This document shows, one piece after another, positions 24,633 to 39,658 of a stretch of 64,000 nucleotides of DNA. Under the pieces are notes generated by a model. The model saw only the letters and a list, made by a program, of their open reading frames with translations, searched no databases and was not told the DNA's origin. The stretch lies in assembly GCF_030384885.1 (NCBI RefSeq), contig NZ_CP128613.1; one strand, given 5' to 3'. A program made the position numbers and the translations under genes. Every line of letters begins with the position of its first letter. Positions within the stretch are counted from its first letter, which is position 1. The DNA is from Escherichia coli. Lineage in GTDB: Bacteria; Pseudomonadota; Gammaproteobacteria; Enterobacterales; Enterobacteriaceae.

Positions 24633-25862
24633 TCAGGGCCAACGTTTTATGATGATGGATGTATTAATGCCGCCAAAGGCAAAGTTGTTACTCTGCAAAA
24701 ACTCACAATCAATCTTGCGCGCTTCATGCATGATGTAATCCAGCTCGCCACAGTTAGGGTCTGGTTTATTCAGGTTTAGCGTAGGCGCAAACCAGCCTTC
24801 TCGCATCATTTGCAGACTCATCCAGGCTTCGAGCGCGCCACAGGCACCAAGCGTATGACCAAAATAACTTTTCAGCGAGGAGAGCGGCACATTATCACCG
24901 TAAATGGTTGCTGTCGCCAGACTTTCTGCCACATCACCACGATCGGTCGCCGTACCATGCGCCGAAATATAGCCGATATCACTTGCACTTAACCCGGCGA
25001 TTTTTAACGATTTTTCCATACAATATTGCATGGTCTCACGCTGAGGCTGGGTAATATGTGCCGCGTCGCAGTTGGTGGCAAAGCCAACGATTTCACCGTA
25101 AATGGTCGCGCCGCGCGCTTTGGCGTGCTCCAGTTCTTCGAGAATCAGCGTGCCTGCGCCTTCGCCAATCACCAGCCCGTCGCGGTTTTCATCGAACGGT
25201 GAAGGGGTGGTTTTCGGCGCGTCATTATGCTGGCTGGTGGCGAAAAGCGTATCAAATACCGCCGCTTCTGAAGGGCATAACTCTTCGGCGCCACCAGCAA
25301 CCATCACCGTTTGATAACCGTGACGAATGGCTTCCCACGCATAACCGATCGCCTGGCTGCCGGAGGTACAGGCGCTGGAGGTTGGGATCACCCGTCCGCG
25401 CAGGCCAAAAAATAGCCCGGTATTAACGGCGGTGGTGTGCGGCATCATCTGCACATAGGTGGTGCCAGTGATGTTGTTCGTGTGCTTTTCCGTCAGCATG
25501 GTGGCGAACTCGCTCACCGGACCGGTACTGCCGGTCGATGAACCGTACGCAATGCCCGTTTCACCGCTGGTTAATATCGGATCGCCAATCAACCCTGCCT
25601 GCTCTAACGCCAGCTCGCTGGCTCGGGTCGACATTTGCGACACGCGGCCCATCGCACGGATACGCTTGCGGGTGTAGTGCTCCGGTAGTGTGAAATCATC
25701 AATCGGCGCGCCAAGCAGGGTGTGCAGACCATCGTAGACCTGCCACTCCGGCATTTTGCGTACTGCATTCTCATACGCCAGCAGGCGCGCGGAAACGTCC
25801 TGCCAGTTTTCACCAAAGGCAGTCACGCCGCCCATTCCTGTAATTACCACGCGACGTGTCAT
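24633..25862 (-). CDS. beta-ketoacyl-ACP synthase, FabB/FabF-like (tentatively ApeR-like)
   Basis: 409 aa; catalytic Cys in SSACTSG, His motifs HGTATDRGD and FGHTLGACG. Confidence 0.85.
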   Translation of the reverse strand: MTRRVVITGMGGVTAFGENWQDVSARLLAYENAVRKMPEWQVYDGLHTLLGAPIDDFTLPEHYTRKRIRAMGRVSQMSTRASELALEQAGLIGDPILTSGETGIAYGSSTGSTGPVSEFATMLTEKHTNNITGTTYVQMMPHTTAVNTGLFFGLRGRVIPTSSACTSGSQAIGYAWEAIRHGYQTVMVAGGAEELCPSEAAVFDTLFATSQHNDAPKTTPSPFDENRDGLVIGEGAGTLILEELEHAKARGATIYGEIVGFATNCDAAHITQPQRETMQYCMEKSLKIAGLSASDIGYISAHGTATDRGDVAESLATATIYGDNVPLSSLKSYFGHTLGACGALEAWMSLQMMREGWFAPTLNLNKPDPNCGELDYIMHEARKIDCEFLQSNNFAFGGINTSIIIKRWP

Positions 25863-26590
25863 AACATCCCTCCGTTGATGGAAATAACCTGGCGGGTGAC
25901 GTAACCCGCAATATCAGACATTAAATAGCTGGCAAGCCCGGCAACTTCTTCCGCCTGGCCCATGCGTTTCATGGGGATCATCGACATTGCCTCTTTCAGA
26001 GCGCTCTCTTCCATTTCGATCATCCCGGTATCAATAAGCCCCGGCGCGATGCAGTTGACGGTGATTTTGCGCTTCGCGAGTTCGATAGCCAGTGCTTTTG
26101 TTGCGCCGATAATTCCGGCTTTGGCAGCGCTGTAGTTCACCTGGCCGCGATTGCCCATTACGCCGGAAACCGAGGACAGCGTGATGATGCGTCCACCCTG
26201 GCGTGCGCCGATCATCGGCATAATGCACGGCTGAATGACGTTGTAGAAACTGTCGAGGTTGGTGTGGATCACCGCATCCCAGTCGTCATCGCTTAAAGCC
26301 GGAAAAGCGGCATCGCGGGCGATCCCGGCGTTACTAACCACGCCGTACCAGGCACCGTGTTGCGCGATCTCGTGCTCCAGCACTTCCCGACACTGTTCGC
26401 GGTTTGCGACGTCGAAACTGAGCAAACGCCCGTTACCACCGTTGGCGACAATGGTATTCAGCGTTTCCTGAGCGCCTGTGGCGTCACGGTGATAGTGAAC
26501 GCCAATATTAAAGCCGTCTGCCGCCAGTTGGCAGGCGATGGCGCGACCAATGCCTTTGCTGGCACCAGTAACCAGAACTGAACGACTCAT
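25859..26590 (-). CDS. 3-oxoacyl-ACP reductase, SDR family (tentatively ApeQ-like)
   Basis: 243 aa; TGASKGIGRAIA cofactor-binding motif and YSAAK catalytic YxxxK. Confidence 0.85.
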   Translation of the reverse strand: MSRSVLVTGASKGIGRAIACQLAADGFNIGVHYHRDATGAQETLNTIVANGGNGRLLSFDVANREQCREVLEHEIAQHGAWYGVVSNAGIARDAAFPALSDDDWDAVIHTNLDSFYNVIQPCIMPMIGARQGGRIITLSSVSGVMGNRGQVNYSAAKAGIIGATKALAIELAKRKITVNCIAPGLIDTGMIEMEESALKEAMSMIPMKRMGQAEEVAGLASYLMSDIAGYVTRQVISINGGML

Positions 26591-27054
26591 CAGGACGCTC
26601 CTTGTTGAAACAGGGTGGTAAGTTCTTCCGCGGTCGGCTGGAAGGTGTTAATGCGGCCCGTTGCCTCGCCGTCGTTGATGCTGCACTCAAAACTACCGAA
26701 GCGTTCATCTTGCATCAGCAGTTTGACGGTAATGGTCAGCGTCTGGCCTGCGGGCAGAATGCCAGCGGCGCAAAGCAATTCACGCGCGCCCAGTACCATC
26801 CCTAACTCAATACTGTTTTTGCCCTGCTGGTGGCGATGCCAGCCAGACCAGACGCCGACGGTTTGCGCCATCAGTTCAAGGGCAAACCAGCCAGGGAGAT
26901 TGCCGTCCGGGTCGAGAAACGGTGCCAGTACACCACTGGGCGAAACCGTCACGCGGCACACGGCGCTGTCATCGCTGACGCTCACCACTTCTTCCAGCAG
27001 CAACATGGGCGCATCGTGGGGCAGATAAGCGCCGGGTGATAAATAGTGGCTCAC
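26590..27054 (-). CDS. hotdog-fold 3-hydroxyacyl-ACP dehydratase-like protein (tentatively ApeP-like)
   Basis: 154-aa ORF, 1-nt overlap with the reductase start; size and position fit a FabA/FabZ-like dehydratase. Confidence 0.65.
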   Translation of the reverse strand: MSHYLSPGAYLPHDAPMLLLEEVVSVSDDSAVCRVTVSPSGVLAPFLDPDGNLPGWFALELMAQTVGVWSGWHRHQQGKNSIELGMVLGARELLCAAGILPAGQTLTITVKLLMQDERFGSFECSINDGEATGRINTFQPTAEELTTLFQQGAS

Positions 27055-38141: not shown

Positions 38142-39209
38142 TTATTTCTTTTGGCATATCAAAAGAGTATGCCCAACGCCTAAATTATCGTGGCGCTCTG
38201 CTACCTGAAATCCTGCTTTATTCAGATAGTCGTAAAATTTCTCTGCACTATAGAAACGGCTGTTACCGTTTGCCATGCAGGTGAAATAAAGTGAGGACGC
38301 GTTCAGGCTAAATGATGCTGCTTCAAACCGCTGCGCATCCCAGAACAACTCCATGATGCAAACTTTTGCGCCAGGCTTCATTACGCTGGCGATTTTGCTG
38401 AGTATGCTAATTATTTGTTCGGGTGAAAAACAGTCTAAAAATTGGCTCATCCACCAGATATCAGCCTCGCCCGGTAATGGGGCATCGCTTAGCATATCCA
38501 CCGCATGGAAATCTATGCGATCAGAAAAACCTGCATTCGCGATATTTTCTTTCGCTAGTACGATTTGTTGTGGCAGATCTAATAACGTCACGGCGATGTT
38601 TTCATTGTATTTGCAGCAACGCAAAGCCCACTTACCCGTATTGCCGCCTACATCGTACAATGTTGTGGGGTTGTTGGCGAATACATAAGGCAGTGCGGCG
38701 TTAAATGCGCCATCTGAATAGTAATGATCAAACGCAAACCAGCTTTCACGAGCGGCATCTGGTAATTGTGAAAGTGCGGGATATATCGTCGACCAGTCGC
38801 CAAATACTTTTAACCCGGACGGTTTTCCTTCATTGAGTGAATCGGCGAGGAAGAAGAGCCCCTGATAGCAGACATCCTGGGTGAAATCCATATTCACGCG
38901 AGTCATAGTGTCATGCAGGAGGTAATGACCGATTTTCGCCAGGTAATACATTCCCTCTTTACAGGTAATAATTCGCCCGCTTAAGCCCATATCTAACAGA
39001 ACGCTGGCCGCATATTCGTTGATATGGCTATGTTCGGTGATATCAGCCAGCGTTGCGCCATGTTTGCCTTGCCGATCCAGATATGAAAGTACACCCGCAT
39101 TACGTAGGCAGAGAGCTGTTTGAAAAAGCATGGGGGCAAAGGCAATGCGTTGAGCTTCGGTAATCGCATCCAGTGCGCTAAGAGAATCCTGTTCGTACAT
39201 GTTGGGCAC
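38142..39209 (-). CDS. class I SAM-dependent (O-)methyltransferase (tentatively ApeB-like)
   Basis: 355 aa; glycine-rich SAM-binding motif VGGNTGKWA. Confidence 0.75.
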   Translation of the reverse strand: MPNMYEQDSLSALDAITEAQRIAFAPMLFQTALCLRNAGVLSYLDRQGKHGATLADITEHSHINEYAASVLLDMGLSGRIITCKEGMYYLAKIGHYLLHDTMTRVNMDFTQDVCYQGLFFLADSLNEGKPSGLKVFGDWSTIYPALSQLPDAARESWFAFDHYYSDGAFNAALPYVFANNPTTLYDVGGNTGKWALRCCKYNENIAVTLLDLPQQIVLAKENIANAGFSDRIDFHAVDMLSDAPLPGEADIWWMSQFLDCFSPEQIISILSKIASVMKPGAKVCIMELFWDAQRFEAASFSLNASSLYFTCMANGNSRFYSAEKFYDYLNKAGFQVAERHDNLGVGHTLLICQKK

Positions 39210-39268
39210 AACCTGTTAAGAGGGAATTAAATTATTATCGGACCGAAGCGGCCCGACTTTAGGGGAAA

Positions 39269-39658
39269 TTACAAATCTGCGCCAGCCGACAAATTCAGTT
39301 GAATATCTTTGTCGAGATTGCGGACCCAGCGATTATAGTTTTTATGAATTTGTCCGCCTGATGCTTGCAGGTTCTGACTATTTTCATAATTGATATCGTA
39401 GCTGGATGCCGTGTAGTTAATGCGAATTTCGGCTGAATGATCGCGTGACTGTTGACGTGCTTTAATTACGCCTTGTCCGGCTTCGGACATAATCCATTTG
39501 CGTTCAACGCCAGCTTTCAGAATCGCTTTTTTCACTTGTTCCGGGGTATGACCAGCGCTGACGGTTGAGTGAACCTGATCAATTGGCGCAGTACGCGCGC
39601 AACCCGCTAAAGCACCCACAACAGCAATAGCCGCAAACCATTTCATGTAATGTCTCAT
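39269..39658 (-). CDS. small lipoprotein, first gene of the cluster transcription unit
   Basis: 129 aa; signal peptide with lipobox LAGC; lower GC than the downstream genes. Confidence 0.55.
   Translation of the reverse strand: MRHYMKWFAAIAVVGALAGCARTAPIDQVHSTVSAGHTPEQVKKAILKAGVERKWIMSEAGQGVIKARQQSRDHSAEIRINYTASSYDINYENSQNLQASGGQIHKNYNRWVRNLDKDIQLNLSAGADL

Follow-up and report, generated by a model that had tools for sequence, protein, structure and literature searches.

The chromosomal yhhT-ape-acpT form of the Escherichia coli aryl polyene cluster: gene content, expected product and probable loss from most strains

Introduction

In some E. coli chromosomes, about 15 kb of DNA separates acpT from yhhT. 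What does this DNA encode, and how did it come to lie there? These questions were addressed in a window of 64,000 nucleotides from contig NZ_CP128613.1 (assembly GCF_030384885.1). The region is the E. coli aryl polyene (APE) cluster apeABCDEFGHIJKLMNOPQR in its chromosomal yhhT-ape-acpT form, which is O-island 138 in O157:H7. The cluster has already been described, and the finding is real but ordinary: the product class, the core enzymology, the lipid anchor (in Xenorhabdus), the phenotype and the link to AcpT have all been published. The present analysis established the gene content, order and integrity of the locus, its orthology, domain folds and genomic distribution, and a deletion scar. 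The chemistry and phenotype given below are drawn throughout from the literature on CFT073 or Xenorhabdus. We regard it as very probable that an APE cluster working by the mechanism outlined here and an ancestral site emptied by one deletion jointly explain the locus.

Gene content and relation to known clusters

Positions 24633-39658 of the minus strand hold 18 consecutive genes, from the apeA start at 39658 to the apeR stop at 24633 (Table 1). This layout was read from the open reading frame (ORF) list and from the RefSeq/PGAP annotation of the near-identical record NZ_CP027579.1, neither of which has an opposite-strand gene within the interval. None of the 18 ape genes contains an internal stop. 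When the PGAP starts are used, 11 of the 17 internal junctions are overlaps of 1-32 nt and the others are gaps of 1-68 nt. Moreover, acpT starts 1 nt past the apeR stop, and yhhT lies 379 nt upstream of apeA. The 18 tightly packed, same-strand ORFs that the initial annotation had placed between acpT and yhhT were thus recovered; it had not named their strand as the minus one. All functions that it listed were found as well, but its list sums to 17, the omitted 18th gene being apeG. Its three ketosynthase-type proteins correspond to ApeO and ApeR, which carry Cys-His-His, and to ApeC, which lacks the active-site Cys and in which motif reading found no Cys/His/His motifs. Its two lipoproteins are ApeA (LAGC) and ApeN (LTGC). 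By motif reading, the catalytic motifs of the Ape enzymes are intact.

Table 1. Features of the yhhT-ape-acpT locus (E, E value; cut-off, curated model threshold)
Feature	Position	Strand	Description	Matches and motifs
yhhT	40038..41087	-		
yhhT-apeA intergenic	39659..40037	-	presumed ape promoter region	AT-rich, about 42% GC
apeA	39269..39658	-	129-aa lipoprotein; PGAP start 39646	lipobox LAGC, Cys20; no Pfam or NCBIfam family matched
apeB	38142..39200	-	SAM-dependent methyltransferase	NCBIfam FlxJ-family methyltransferase E 1e-142, below cut-off; 94% identity to CFT073 c1203
apeC	37379..38101	-	chain-length factor, KS-like, ApeO partner; PGAP 'beta-ketoacyl synthase chain length factor'	PDB 6QSP chain B (X. 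doucetiae ApeC) E 4e-92
apeD	36561..37382	-	lysophospholipid/1-acylglycerol-3-phosphate-type acyltransferase	TIGR00530 E 3e-15; HX4D motif H96-D101
apeE	36329..36586	-	acyl carrier protein	Ser41 in DSI motif; NF006617 above cut-off; PDB 9LS6 E 1e-24
apeF	36066..36317	-	second acyl carrier protein	Ser40 in DSI motif; NF003757 E 8e-43, above cut-off
apeG	35480..36061	-	193-aa polytopic membrane protein; COG4648 in literature	Pfam: weak IspA-like match only, E 0.005
apeH	34122..35483	-	adenylate-forming enzyme	ANL-superfamily matches
apeI	33782..34135	-	hotdog dehydratase subunit, ApeP partner; PGAP 'ApeI family dehydratase'	PDB 6QSR chain A E 4e-38
apeJ	32115..33791	-	GT2 glycosyltransferase domain (residues 8-131) and PatA/LpxM-type acyltransferase (residues about 245-558)	
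apeK	31689..32111	-	YbgC/FadM-type hotdog thioesterase	TIGR00051 E 1.4e-16, below cut-off; MenI model E 5e-21
apeL	31087..31692	-	LolA-like periplasmic carrier	signal peptide, no lipobox; TIGR00547 lolA E 8e-16 and LolA2_flexi E 9e-15, each under its cut-off
apeM	28803..31118	-	771-aa RND/MMPL-type inner-membrane exporter; PGAP 'MMPL family transporter'	HAE3, HpnN and MMPL models E 1e-13 to 5e-7
apeN	28222..28806	-	DUF3261 lipoprotein (PGAP)	lipobox LTGC, Cys21
apeO	27051..28220	-	elongating ketosynthase	Cys156/His281/His315; PDB 6QSP chain A (X. doucetiae ApeO) E 2e-175; NF006618 above cut-off
apeP	26590..27054	-	hotdog dehydratase subunit, ApeI partner; PGAP 'ApeP family dehydratase'	PDB 6QSR chain B E 6e-48
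apeQ	25859..26590	-	3-ketoacyl-ACP reductase FabG2, SDR family	Tyr153-X3-Lys157; TIGR01831 E 3e-143, above cut-off; PDB 4IIU E 4e-154
apeR	24633..25862	-	FabF-like ketosynthase	Cys165/His302/His336; NF006587 E 8e-235, above cut-off; PDB 4EWG E 1e-165, 7F27 E 4e-159
acpT	24044..24631	-	4'-phosphopantetheinyl transferase	NF007676 E 4e-119
Divergent block 1	33850..35650	-	most of apeI, all of apeH, 3' third of apeG	50-78% nucleotide identity to CFT073-type cluster
Divergent block 2	39000..39658	-	first ~65 codons of apeB, all of apeA; runs on into the ape promoter region	about 54-86% nucleotide identity to CFT073-type cluster

All 18 genes stand in the same order as in the CFT073 cluster c1204-c1186, and for 14 of the 18 proteins identity to the CFT073 counterpart is 94-99%, the exceptions being ApeH (65%), ApeI (72%), ApeG (82%) and ApeA (64%, c1204). 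Against the O157:H7 and ST69-type copies at the yhhT-acpT site, identity is 93-100% for all 18 proteins (98-99% for ApeA). The closest solved relatives are the Xenorhabdus ApeO:ApeC (6QSP) and ApeI:ApeP (6QSR) complexes. Very close solved relatives of ApeR, ApeQ and ApeE are also in the PDB, and these presumably include Ape proteins of A. baumannii. CFT073 colinearity, the two PDB complexes and the PGAP names of ApeI and ApeP confirm the suggested membership of the aryl polyene family, and the O157 island beside acpT, to which the region had been likened, occupies the same site. The cluster had also rightly been expected to be known. For CFT073, genetics, pigment, protection against H2O2 and biofilm formation have been reported, and its ape cluster alone is sufficient for aryl polyene in K-12 (PMC8253772). 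The structure of the APE lipid and its pathway have been described (bioRxiv 10.1101/2020.12.19.423268), and ECs_4324-4341 of strain Sakai was previously published as an APE cluster called by antiSMASH.

ApeJ combines a GT2 domain with a PatA/LpxM-type acyltransferase in one fusion protein. The former matches Pfam GT2 (E 2.5e-20), and the latter has an invariant H370-X4-E375. A profile of 74 ApeJ homologues matches LpxM 5KN7 (E 3e-7) with HX4E aligned, and PF03279 is matched by 63 of the 74. In a Foldseek search with the AF2 model (pLDDT 91.5), all 14 significant matches were PatA or LpxM (best E 4e-11). PatA acylates the 6-OH of a sugar. This activity is consistent with the proposal that GalNAc is acylated by the APE (bioRxiv 10.1101/2020.12.19.423268).

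Proposed pathway

The mechanism outlined here follows the characterised CFT073 and Xenorhabdus doucetiae orthologues. ApeE and ApeF would first be phosphopantetheinylated by AcpT, and acpT is in functional terms the 19th gene of the cluster. In vitro modification of the O157 ApeE/F homologues by AcpT is credited to De Lay and Cronan (2006) in PMC8253772. ApeH should then adenylate 4-hydroxybenzoate (4-HBA) supplied by UbiC and load this aryl starter directly onto ApeE, the putative carrier of the aryl polyene chain. The TSGSTG and YGSTET motifs and the C-terminal Lys of ApeH are invariant in four orthologues, and 4-HBA loading has been demonstrated for the Xenorhabdus enzyme. Since ApeH shares no more than 65% identity with the E. 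coli allele that has been characterised, we infer rather than assert its use of 4-HBA.

The first condensation would be catalysed by ApeR, which is the initiation ketosynthase (KS) in Xenorhabdus as reported. The ketosynthase/chain-length factor (KS/CLF) pair ApeO:ApeC, ApeQ and ApeI:ApeP would then iterate with malonyl-ACP, and because the enoyl bond would never be reduced, a conjugated hexaene is predicted. The phenol ring would be methylated by ApeB, to which methylation of the aryl head group has been assigned (PMC8253772; Grammbitter preprint, bioRxiv 10.1101/2020.12.19.423268). ApeF probably serves as the carrier on which a second conjugated fatty acyl chain is assembled, and ApeD would transfer this chain to a lysophosphatidylglycerol, a role put forward for ApeD in bioRxiv 10.1101/2020.12.19.423268. 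The GT2 domain of ApeJ would add an N-acetylhexosamine, and its PatA/LpxM-like domain would esterify this sugar with the ApeE-bound aryl polyene; ApeK may aid release or editing. Finally, ApeM (RND), ApeG, ApeL (LolA-like), the lipoprotein ApeN and perhaps ApeA would deliver the pigment lipid to the outer membrane. ApeN is LolB-like according to the literature, and its role was proposed in bioRxiv 10.1101/2020.12.19.423268. The expected product should thus be a yellow polyene lipid of the outer membrane, which would give protection from oxidative stress by quenching reactive oxygen species and would promote biofilm formation.

Expression of the cluster

Is the cluster used in this strain? A terminator-like hairpin directly follows yhhT (about 40018-39980), and only about 40% of the intergenic region is alignable with the upstream region of CFT073. 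A promoter scan returned a sigma-70 promoter at 39852-39824 (TTGCCT-17-TATAGT), which is a candidate only, since matches across the yhhT-apeA region are at chance level. This result fits a cryptic cluster, intact yet effectively silent under ordinary conditions and without measurable contribution unless induced. Such silence is possible, although we consider it the less probable state. PMC12871727 describes the ape cluster as lacking a dedicated regulator, and in X. doucetiae the cluster is silent under laboratory conditions and had to be driven from the PBAD promoter (bioRxiv 10.1101/2020.12.19.423268), and induction by H2O2 in native CFT073 is only modest. Moreover, the OI-138 genes are 2-6-fold higher in an EDL933 rpoS mutant and are thus RpoS-repressed. 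Together with the silent Xenorhabdus cluster, this repression makes expression in the present strain uncertain. However, all 18 genes are intact and their catalytic residues conserved in a lineage whose divergence from other E. coli is about 4-5%, which argues for purifying selection and therefore for use. In addition, a secondary citation in PMC9205054 has the O157 Sakai orthologues induced on spinach roots.

Two divergent blocks and the product of the acpT-linked allele

Sliding-window identity on a MAFFT alignment with the CFT073-type cluster places ApeH, ApeI, ApeG and ApeA, the low-identity proteins, in two replaced blocks (Table 1). Sharp breakpoints lie near 33850 and 35650, and another is seen from about 39000; in the sequence flanking block 1, most 50-nt windows are 84-100% identical. 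The replaced block coincides exactly with the starter-loading module, and the literature searched reports no product for the acpT-linked allele. The differing alleles might thus use another aryl starter or process the chain differently, yielding a distinct APE lipid. We consider this unlikely, as the differences between the ApeH alleles are scattered along the whole protein with no single hot region, and all ANL core motifs and 180-odd ApeH positions stay invariant even in Erwinia, where identity is about 50%. Between the two E. coli types, the methyltransferase, KS/CLF, KR and ApeP are near-identical. Furthermore, Ape clusters at least as divergent, such as those of Xenorhabdus and Vibrio, are reported to use the same 4-hydroxyphenyl starter.

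Origin of the yhhT-acpT site

About 570 of 5,426 complete E. coli genomes (about 10.5%) carry the cluster at the yhhT-acpT site, and a further 255 have a CFT073-type copy elsewhere. In 4,856 genomes (89.5%), acpT adjoins yhhT in a contiguous match to the K-12 junction. In MG1655, the two genes are adjacent with a 54-bp spacer and the 15 kb is absent, as the initial annotation had stated. From this adjacency it had concluded that the region is an accessory insertion, which as a model of origin means an island gained by horizontal transfer between two adjacent core genes. The minority distribution agrees with that idea, as does the uneven GC content (about 42-50% at the apeA/apeB end, 55-60% elsewhere). 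The CFT073 copy lies in a pathogenicity-island context, with an integrase, IS fragments and cdiBA-like genes as neighbours, which implies that the ape cluster can move.

However, the empty site points the other way. The K-12-type junction still contains about 20 nt that match the 3' end of apeR exactly, including its stop codon. Since the unlinked apeR of CFT073 also ends ...IKRWP*, this remnant is part of apeR rather than of an earlier spacer. Each of the 16 fully sampled empty-site genomes had the same flank-to-flank distance, 1,149 bp; together with the 4,856 K-12-type matches, this marks the empty site as a single deletion allele. The ape locus showed no integrase, IS element, tRNA or flanking direct repeat. 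The tight packing of acpT behind apeR has a parallel in Enterobacter sp. Bisph1, where an AcpT homologue lies 9 nt past apeR, and the whole yhhT-ape-acpT arrangement is present in Escherichia sp. E1V33. The insertion model is thus largely refuted, and we hold it to be very unlikely. The apeR remnant, the lack of mobility features and the conserved apeR-acpT linkage instead argue for a deletion in most E. coli, as is likewise stated in the title of De Lay and Cronan (2006; reference 25 of PMC8253772). Most likely, the cluster is ancestral at this site and one deletion removed it from most E. coli. The 34 nt of the K-12 spacer beside yhhT match nothing in the ape cluster, which shows that the deletion was not clean.

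A generic accessory fatty acid synthase island, making an unusual saturated or hydroxy fatty acid or modifying lipid A instead of forming an aryl polyene, would agree with the matches to FabF, FabG, FabZ, ACP, PlsC and LpxM-type families and with the lack of an enoyl reductase or aromatic-acid synthase gene, but it is highly improbable because the orthologous CFT073 cluster by itself yields aryl polyene in K-12 (PMC8253772), APE clusters have as their signature the KS/CLF pair, the ApeI:ApeP heterodimer and the aryl-acid-type adenylating enzyme, and a polyene results precisely from the absent enoyl reductase.

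Identity and gene organisation of the ape cluster

The ape cluster is an unbroken run of minus-strand ORFs extending from 39658 to 24633 in the ORF list of the window. In the near-identical RefSeq record NZ_CP027579.1 (E. coli 2013C-4282), for which BLAST reported no mismatches over 24000-40500 and a direct comparison uncovered three SNPs inside the cluster, exactly 18 CDS are annotated on one shared strand, with acpT and yhhT as flanks. Thus, the boundaries and the gene inventory of the initial annotation are correct; this inventory comprised 17 functions, and the 18th gene encodes the small membrane protein ApeG. 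None of the 18 ape genes contains an internal stop. With the starts assigned by PGAP, overlaps of 1-32 nt occur at 11 of the 17 internal junctions and gaps of 1-68 nt at the others, while a single nucleotide separates the apeR stop codon from the acpT start.

Positions of selected genes and minor features in the window
Feature	Coordinates	Strand	Remarks
acpT	24631-24044	minus	flank; NZ_CP027579.1 annotation
yhhT	41087-40038	minus	flank; NZ_CP027579.1 annotation
ApeO	27051-28220	minus	best PDB match 6QSP chain A, E 2e-175
ApeC	37379-38101	minus	best PDB match 6QSP chain B, E 4e-92
102-aa hypothetical ORF	44415-44723	plus	between tusA and zntA
DUF4049 gene	9823-11430	plus	between yhiM and yhiI
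DUF4049 gene, paralogue	11692-13314	plus	between yhiM and yhiI
248-aa hypothetical protein	60859-61605	plus	between livF and ugpB
ES036 (CssrF) sRNA	5005-5045	minus	42 bits; between uspB and pitA

The aryl polyene (APE) cluster of E. coli CFT073, c1204-c1186, corresponds to apeA-apeR (18 genes, 15.5 kb) and on its own confers pigment formation on K-12 (PMC8253772). It is listed as BCG0000836 (PMC9205054), which is presumably MIBiG BGC0000836. The 18 window proteins correspond one by one and in the same sequence to those of this cluster, which is proven to make an APE; number, order, orientation and overlaps of the genes are alike, 14 of the proteins are 94-99% identical, and the predicted chemistry and export machinery are the same. 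However, the CFT073 copy is part of an island that also contains an integrase, IS fragments and cdi/hemagglutinin genes, and acpT does not adjoin it, whereas the window copy is located between yhhT and acpT. The earlier APE identification is correct.

O-island 138 of O157:H7 (listed tags Z4851-Z4861 in EDL933; ECs_4324-4341 in Sakai) occupies the same nikA-acpT-ape-yhhT site. The O157:H7 copy (strain PA20) contains the same 18 genes and is of the same allele type as the window copy, ApeH included. The two copies differ solely by patchy allelic divergence of about 4-5% at the nucleotide level (nucleotide identity 95.4%; proteins 93-99.6% identical), and ApeM has 771 aa in the window and 772 in O157:H7. 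AcpT has been reported to be the cognate PPTase of the two ACPs of O-island 138, which it modifies in vitro (De Lay and Cronan 2006, as cited in PMC8253772), and a 2022 pangenome paper gives an antiSMASH assignment of ECs_4324-4341 in Sakai to the APE clusters (PMC9205054). The identity of the locus is therefore already in the literature, and the suspicion that the cluster matches the O157 island beside acpT and is probably known was well founded. The cluster itself, the connection to AcpT and the assignment as APE have been published, and nothing new in kind is described here.

The ape cluster of Xenorhabdus doucetiae (APE_Xd, producing APEL lipids) shares the apeA-R names and functions, and the corresponding window proteins find their best PDB matches in its ApeO:ApeC and ApeI:ApeP crystal structures. 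X. doucetiae belongs to another genus and its sequences are more distant. The flexirubin and xanthomonadin subfamilies have the aryl-polyene chemistry, the type II PKS logic and LolA-like/RND export in common with the ape cluster. The flexirubin models FlxJ, FlxB and LolA2_flexi match ape proteins significantly, yet a flexirubin-type cluster was rejected because the scores stay below the curated cut-offs (475 versus 560, 266 versus 340 and 54.5 versus 125 bits, respectively). Genes for dialkylresorcinol synthesis or a halogenase are absent from the 18 ape genes.

Enzymes, carriers and export proteins

The proteins were identified by family searches and by searches against solved structures in the PDB, and the results were mutually consistent. 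ApeO and ApeC match the X. doucetiae ApeO:ApeC ketosynthase/chain-length-factor complex (6QSP). A motif check revealed the Cys-His-His residues in ApeO and ApeR and their absence from ApeC; the pairing of a ketosynthase with a Cys-less chain-length factor, a feature of the APE family, is thus present. ApeR is a FabF-like second ketosynthase (NF006587, 779 bits versus a cut-off of 470; 7F27, E 4e-159). ApeQ is a FabG2 ketoreductase (TIGR01831, 475 bits versus a cut-off of 339; 4IIU, E 4e-154) and carries the Tyr-X3-Lys motif of SDR enzymes. ApeI and ApeP, named 'ApeI family' and 'ApeP family' by PGAP, match chains A (E 4e-38) and B (E 6e-48) of 6QSR and are predicted to form a heterodimeric hotdog dehydratase pair. 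No enoyl reductase was detected among the 18 genes by annotation and family searches.

ApeE and ApeF are tandem ACPs (NF006617 and NF003757, both above cut-off; match to 9LS6) with the phosphopantetheine-attachment Ser in a DSI motif at residues 40-42 and 39-41, respectively. ApeH, an ANL adenylating enzyme with intact core motifs, occupies the orthologous position and is 65% identical to the CFT073 allele. The remaining enzymes are the methyltransferase ApeB, which matched the FlxJ model below cut-off, the PlsC-type acyltransferase (LPLAT) ApeD (TIGR00530; HX4D motif) and the YbgC/FadM thioesterase ApeK. Family searches and annotation also identified the RND/MMPL transporter ApeM, the LolA-like protein ApeL and the DUF3261 protein ApeN, a set that is characteristic of the APE family. 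Lipoboxes were found in ApeA (LAGC) and ApeN (LTGC). PADLOC returned no matches for ApeA, ApeG and the hypothetical proteins of the flanks.

The acyltransferase domain of ApeJ

Residues 8-131 of ApeJ form a GT2 domain, which is the sole Pfam match on the full protein. For the C-terminal half, neither Pfam on the full protein nor a direct phmmer search against the PDB identified an acyltransferase, and NCBIfam gave weak matches only (E 2e-4 and 0.025). A first AF2 model built from six close orthologues was unusable (pLDDT 52.8), and a profile of distant homologues was needed. For residues 245-558, 2,947 proteins, both GT2-fused and stand-alone, were retrieved at E ≤ 0.001, and 74 of them were aligned. 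The lipid A biosynthesis acyltransferase family PF03279 was matched by 63 of these 74 homologues, and the profile matched LpxM of A. baumannii (5KN7, E 3e-7), whose catalytic HX4E aligns with the invariant S-H370-L-G-D-V-E375 of ApeJ. The AF2 model of the C-terminal domain reached a pLDDT of 91.5, and all 14 significant Foldseek matches in the PDB were PatA or LpxM (best E 4e-11, probability 1.0). The proteins have the fold in common (TM-scores of 0.57-0.71 on two normalisations), although just 15-18% of the residues are identical. Pfam GT2, PF03279, the LpxM profile match and Foldseek thus confirm the GT2/acyltransferase fusion that had been proposed from the sequence, and the lipid-attachment enzymes of the APE family, the LPLAT ApeD and the ApeJ fusion, are present. 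At the level of the predicted fold, the C-terminus of ApeJ is a PatA/LpxM-type acyltransferase, a confirmation that is a small addition of this analysis.

PatA is a mycobacterial PIM acyltransferase and LpxM/LpxL are lipid A secondary acyltransferases, whereas the ApeJ domain is fused to a GT2 domain. The predicted donor of ApeJ would be an ACP-bound aryl polyene instead of a saturated acyl chain. PatA transfers an acyl group to the sugar 6-OH of a glycolipid. This activity fits the esterification of GalNAc with an aryl polyene that has been proposed for ApeJ (bioRxiv 10.1101/2020.12.19.423268).

Predicted mechanism and regulation

The whole mechanism is derived from orthology (PMC8253772; bioRxiv 10.1101/2020.12.19.423268). 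AcpT would activate the ACPs and ApeH would load 4-hydroxybenzoate. ApeR, ApeO:ApeC, ApeQ and ApeI:ApeP would then build a conjugated hexaene, ApeB would methylate the product, and ApeF, ApeD and ApeJ would assemble the APE lipid from the hexaene. ApeM, ApeG, ApeL, ApeN and possibly ApeA would export the lipid to the outer membrane. Loading of 4-HBA by ApeH, initiation by ApeR, elongation by ApeO:ApeC and the structure of the final lipid were all described for the X. doucetiae system (PMC8253772; bioRxiv 10.1101/2020.12.19.423268).

The ape cluster reportedly has no regulator of its own (PMC12871727). The region upstream of apeA spans 379 bp with about 42% GC, has a terminator-like hairpin of yhhT at its start, and one weak candidate sigma-70 promoter was retained in it. 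Across 23800-41300, the promoter and terminator scan remained at the level of shuffled sequences (17 versus 12.3±3.2 and 29 versus 22.5±5.8, respectively). The OI-138 genes are 2-6-fold higher expressed in an rpoS mutant of EDL933, and the CFT073 cluster is induced by TosR overexpression (PMC8253772). The CFT073 ape promoter region is not homologous to that of the window, and regulatory findings from CFT073 may therefore not be transferable to the window cluster.

APE clusters reportedly rank with the most widespread biosynthetic gene clusters in bacteria, and APE pigment lipids shield Gram-negative pathogens against oxidative killing and favour the formation of biofilm. Producers are protected against H2O2 and form more biofilm (PMC8253772), and a sensitised OxyR response has been reported as well (PMC12871727). 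Given these roles in pathogens, it is of some value for pathogen biology to know which E. coli lineages carry which allele.

Origin of the empty site between yhhT and acpT

In K-12, yhhT and acpT are 54 bp apart, in line with the statement in the initial annotation that the two genes adjoin there. A contiguous match to a 311-nt probe for this junction was present in 4,856 of 5,426 genomes, and the flank-to-flank distance was 1,149 bp in every one of the 16 fully sampled empty-site genomes. Directly ahead of the acpT start codon in K-12, 20 nt (CATTAAACGTTGGCCCTGA) correspond to the final codons and the stop of apeR in the window (CATAAAACGTTGGCCCTGA). In ape carriers, the junction probe regains homology precisely 20 nt ahead of acpT, at a position annotated as the ketosynthase. 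The unlinked apeR copies of CFT073 and M3 end in the same ...IKRWP*, followed by unrelated DNA; therefore, the 20 nt are part of apeR rather than of a spacer that already existed. The acpT linkage also occurs outside of E. coli: Escherichia sp. E1V33 has the yhhT-ape-acpT arrangement of the window, and in Enterobacter sp. Bisph1 an AcpT homologue (63% identity) lies 9 nt after apeR.

It had been assumed that the cluster is an accessory insertion. Annotation revealed no integrase, transposase or IS element in the cluster, no tRNA is located within the window, and a search for flanking repeats at the cluster borders gave only short matches at chance level. A mobile genomic island was thus rejected, the more so as the empty site retains the 3' end of apeR. 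With this remnant, the lack of mobility features and the apeR-acpT linkage in Enterobacter, the assumption of an insertion probably has the direction of the event wrong. The most economical reading of the sequences would be that acpT is the ancestral 19th gene of the ape operon and that apeA-apeR was lost through one deletion, which occurred in the ancestor of most E. coli or spread among them by recombination. The 34 nt of the K-12 spacer beside yhhT (GGCGACAAGTGATACGATACGCACTTTCATTTTC; 6916-6949 of the K-12 empty-site locus L009) had no match in the window or the fetched ape loci when up to 6 mismatches were allowed, and may be filler DNA from the deletion event. The sequence comparison thus argues for the K-12-type site being a deletion scar common to about 90% of complete genomes, which is a small addition of this analysis.

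Distribution and lineage

The ape cluster is present in 825 of the 5,426 complete E. coli genomes, and none of these carriers has a plasmid-borne copy. A full-length match at ≥95% identity was found in 571 genomes; in the rows sampled, these matches (O157:H7, O55:H7, O145:H28, ST69 and others) lie at the acpT site. In 255 genomes, e.g. ATCC 25922 and H10407, the match is in two pieces at 90-95% identity and corresponds to the CFT073 type, which is located elsewhere, beside cdiBA-like genes. The island with the CFT073-type copy (L004 of CFT073, 7703-23500 and 39265-44805; L003 of strain M3, 21538-26758) contains a tyrosine integrase, IS fragments and many pseudogenes. This ape copy is followed by a cdiB/cdiA-type two-partner secretion locus, which CFT073 has in degraded and M3 in intact form.

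No copy in any other complete genome exceeds 96.1% identity to the window allele. A special divergence of the ape cluster was rejected, since the core genes of the flanks are equally divergent (about 94-96% identical); the divergence is a property of the lineage rather than of the cluster. For rbbA, the nik operon (14000-23900) and the yhhS-ftsY stretch including zntA (42000-50000), identity to almost all of the 5,425 other complete E. coli genomes is only about 94-96%. From this low identity it follows that the strain belongs to a divergent lineage. Compared with NZ_CP027579.1, the best database match of the window, 224 substitutions fall in two patches upstream of the nik operon within 1-24183, mainly at 1-3500 and 12000-17700. 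The remaining ~40 kb contain five substitutions, of which those in the ape cluster are at 28666, 31066 and 36109. The patches look like recombination tracts between sister strains.

Two types of the ape cluster in E. coli

Four window proteins stand apart from the 94-99% identity to CFT073, namely ApeH (65%), ApeI (72%), ApeG (82%) and ApeA (64%). Sliding-window nucleotide identity to CFT073 delimits two sharply bounded blocks. Block 1 (~33850-35650; 50-78% identity) covers most of apeI, the whole apeH and the 3' third of apeG, and block 2 (from ~39000 upstream; ~40-86% identity) spans the promoter region, apeA and the 5' end of apeB (first ~65 codons). The window alleles also occur in the O157, ST69-type and E1V33 copies. 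The two E. coli cluster types thus differ by a replaced block containing the putative starter-loading gene and by an apeA/promoter block, which is a small addition of this analysis.

The ApeH proteins of the window, CFT073 and Enterobacter are mutually about 65% identical (65% versus 64% to the outgroup). The window-type ApeA (71% versus 62%) and ApeG (72% versus 65%) are closer to Enterobacter than the CFT073-type proteins, a weak hint that import took place in the CFT073 blocks. Exact-peptide patterns of ApeH in genome contigs identified three loci only, too few to name the donor of the divergent block.

The replaced apeI-apeH-apeG' and apeA-promoter blocks could give the acpT-linked allele a different starter, chain processing or regulation as compared to CFT073, but we regard this as improbable. 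The ApeH alleles differ throughout the length of the protein, the ANL core motifs are invariant without exception, and the allele comparison revealed no sign of a changed substrate. In the literature searched, no product of an acpT-linked allele was reported. This allele is carried by EHEC O157:H7, O55:H7, O145:H28, ST69-type strains and the window lineage; if the blocks did alter the product or its control, about 10% of E. coli would make a chemically or regulatorily distinct aryl-polyene lipid.

Other features of the window

An Rfam scan of the whole window gave the ES036 sRNA as the sole match above the gathering score, and nothing in or near the ape cluster. For the 102-aa ORF, at whose position K-12 has a spacer of ~100 bp, neither a convincing family nor a defence-system match was found. 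The two adjoining paralogous DUF4049 genes matched no NCBIfam or PADLOC family. The 248-aa hypothetical protein has weak TPR/YbgF-like matches (E 6e-7), which are below the cut-off.
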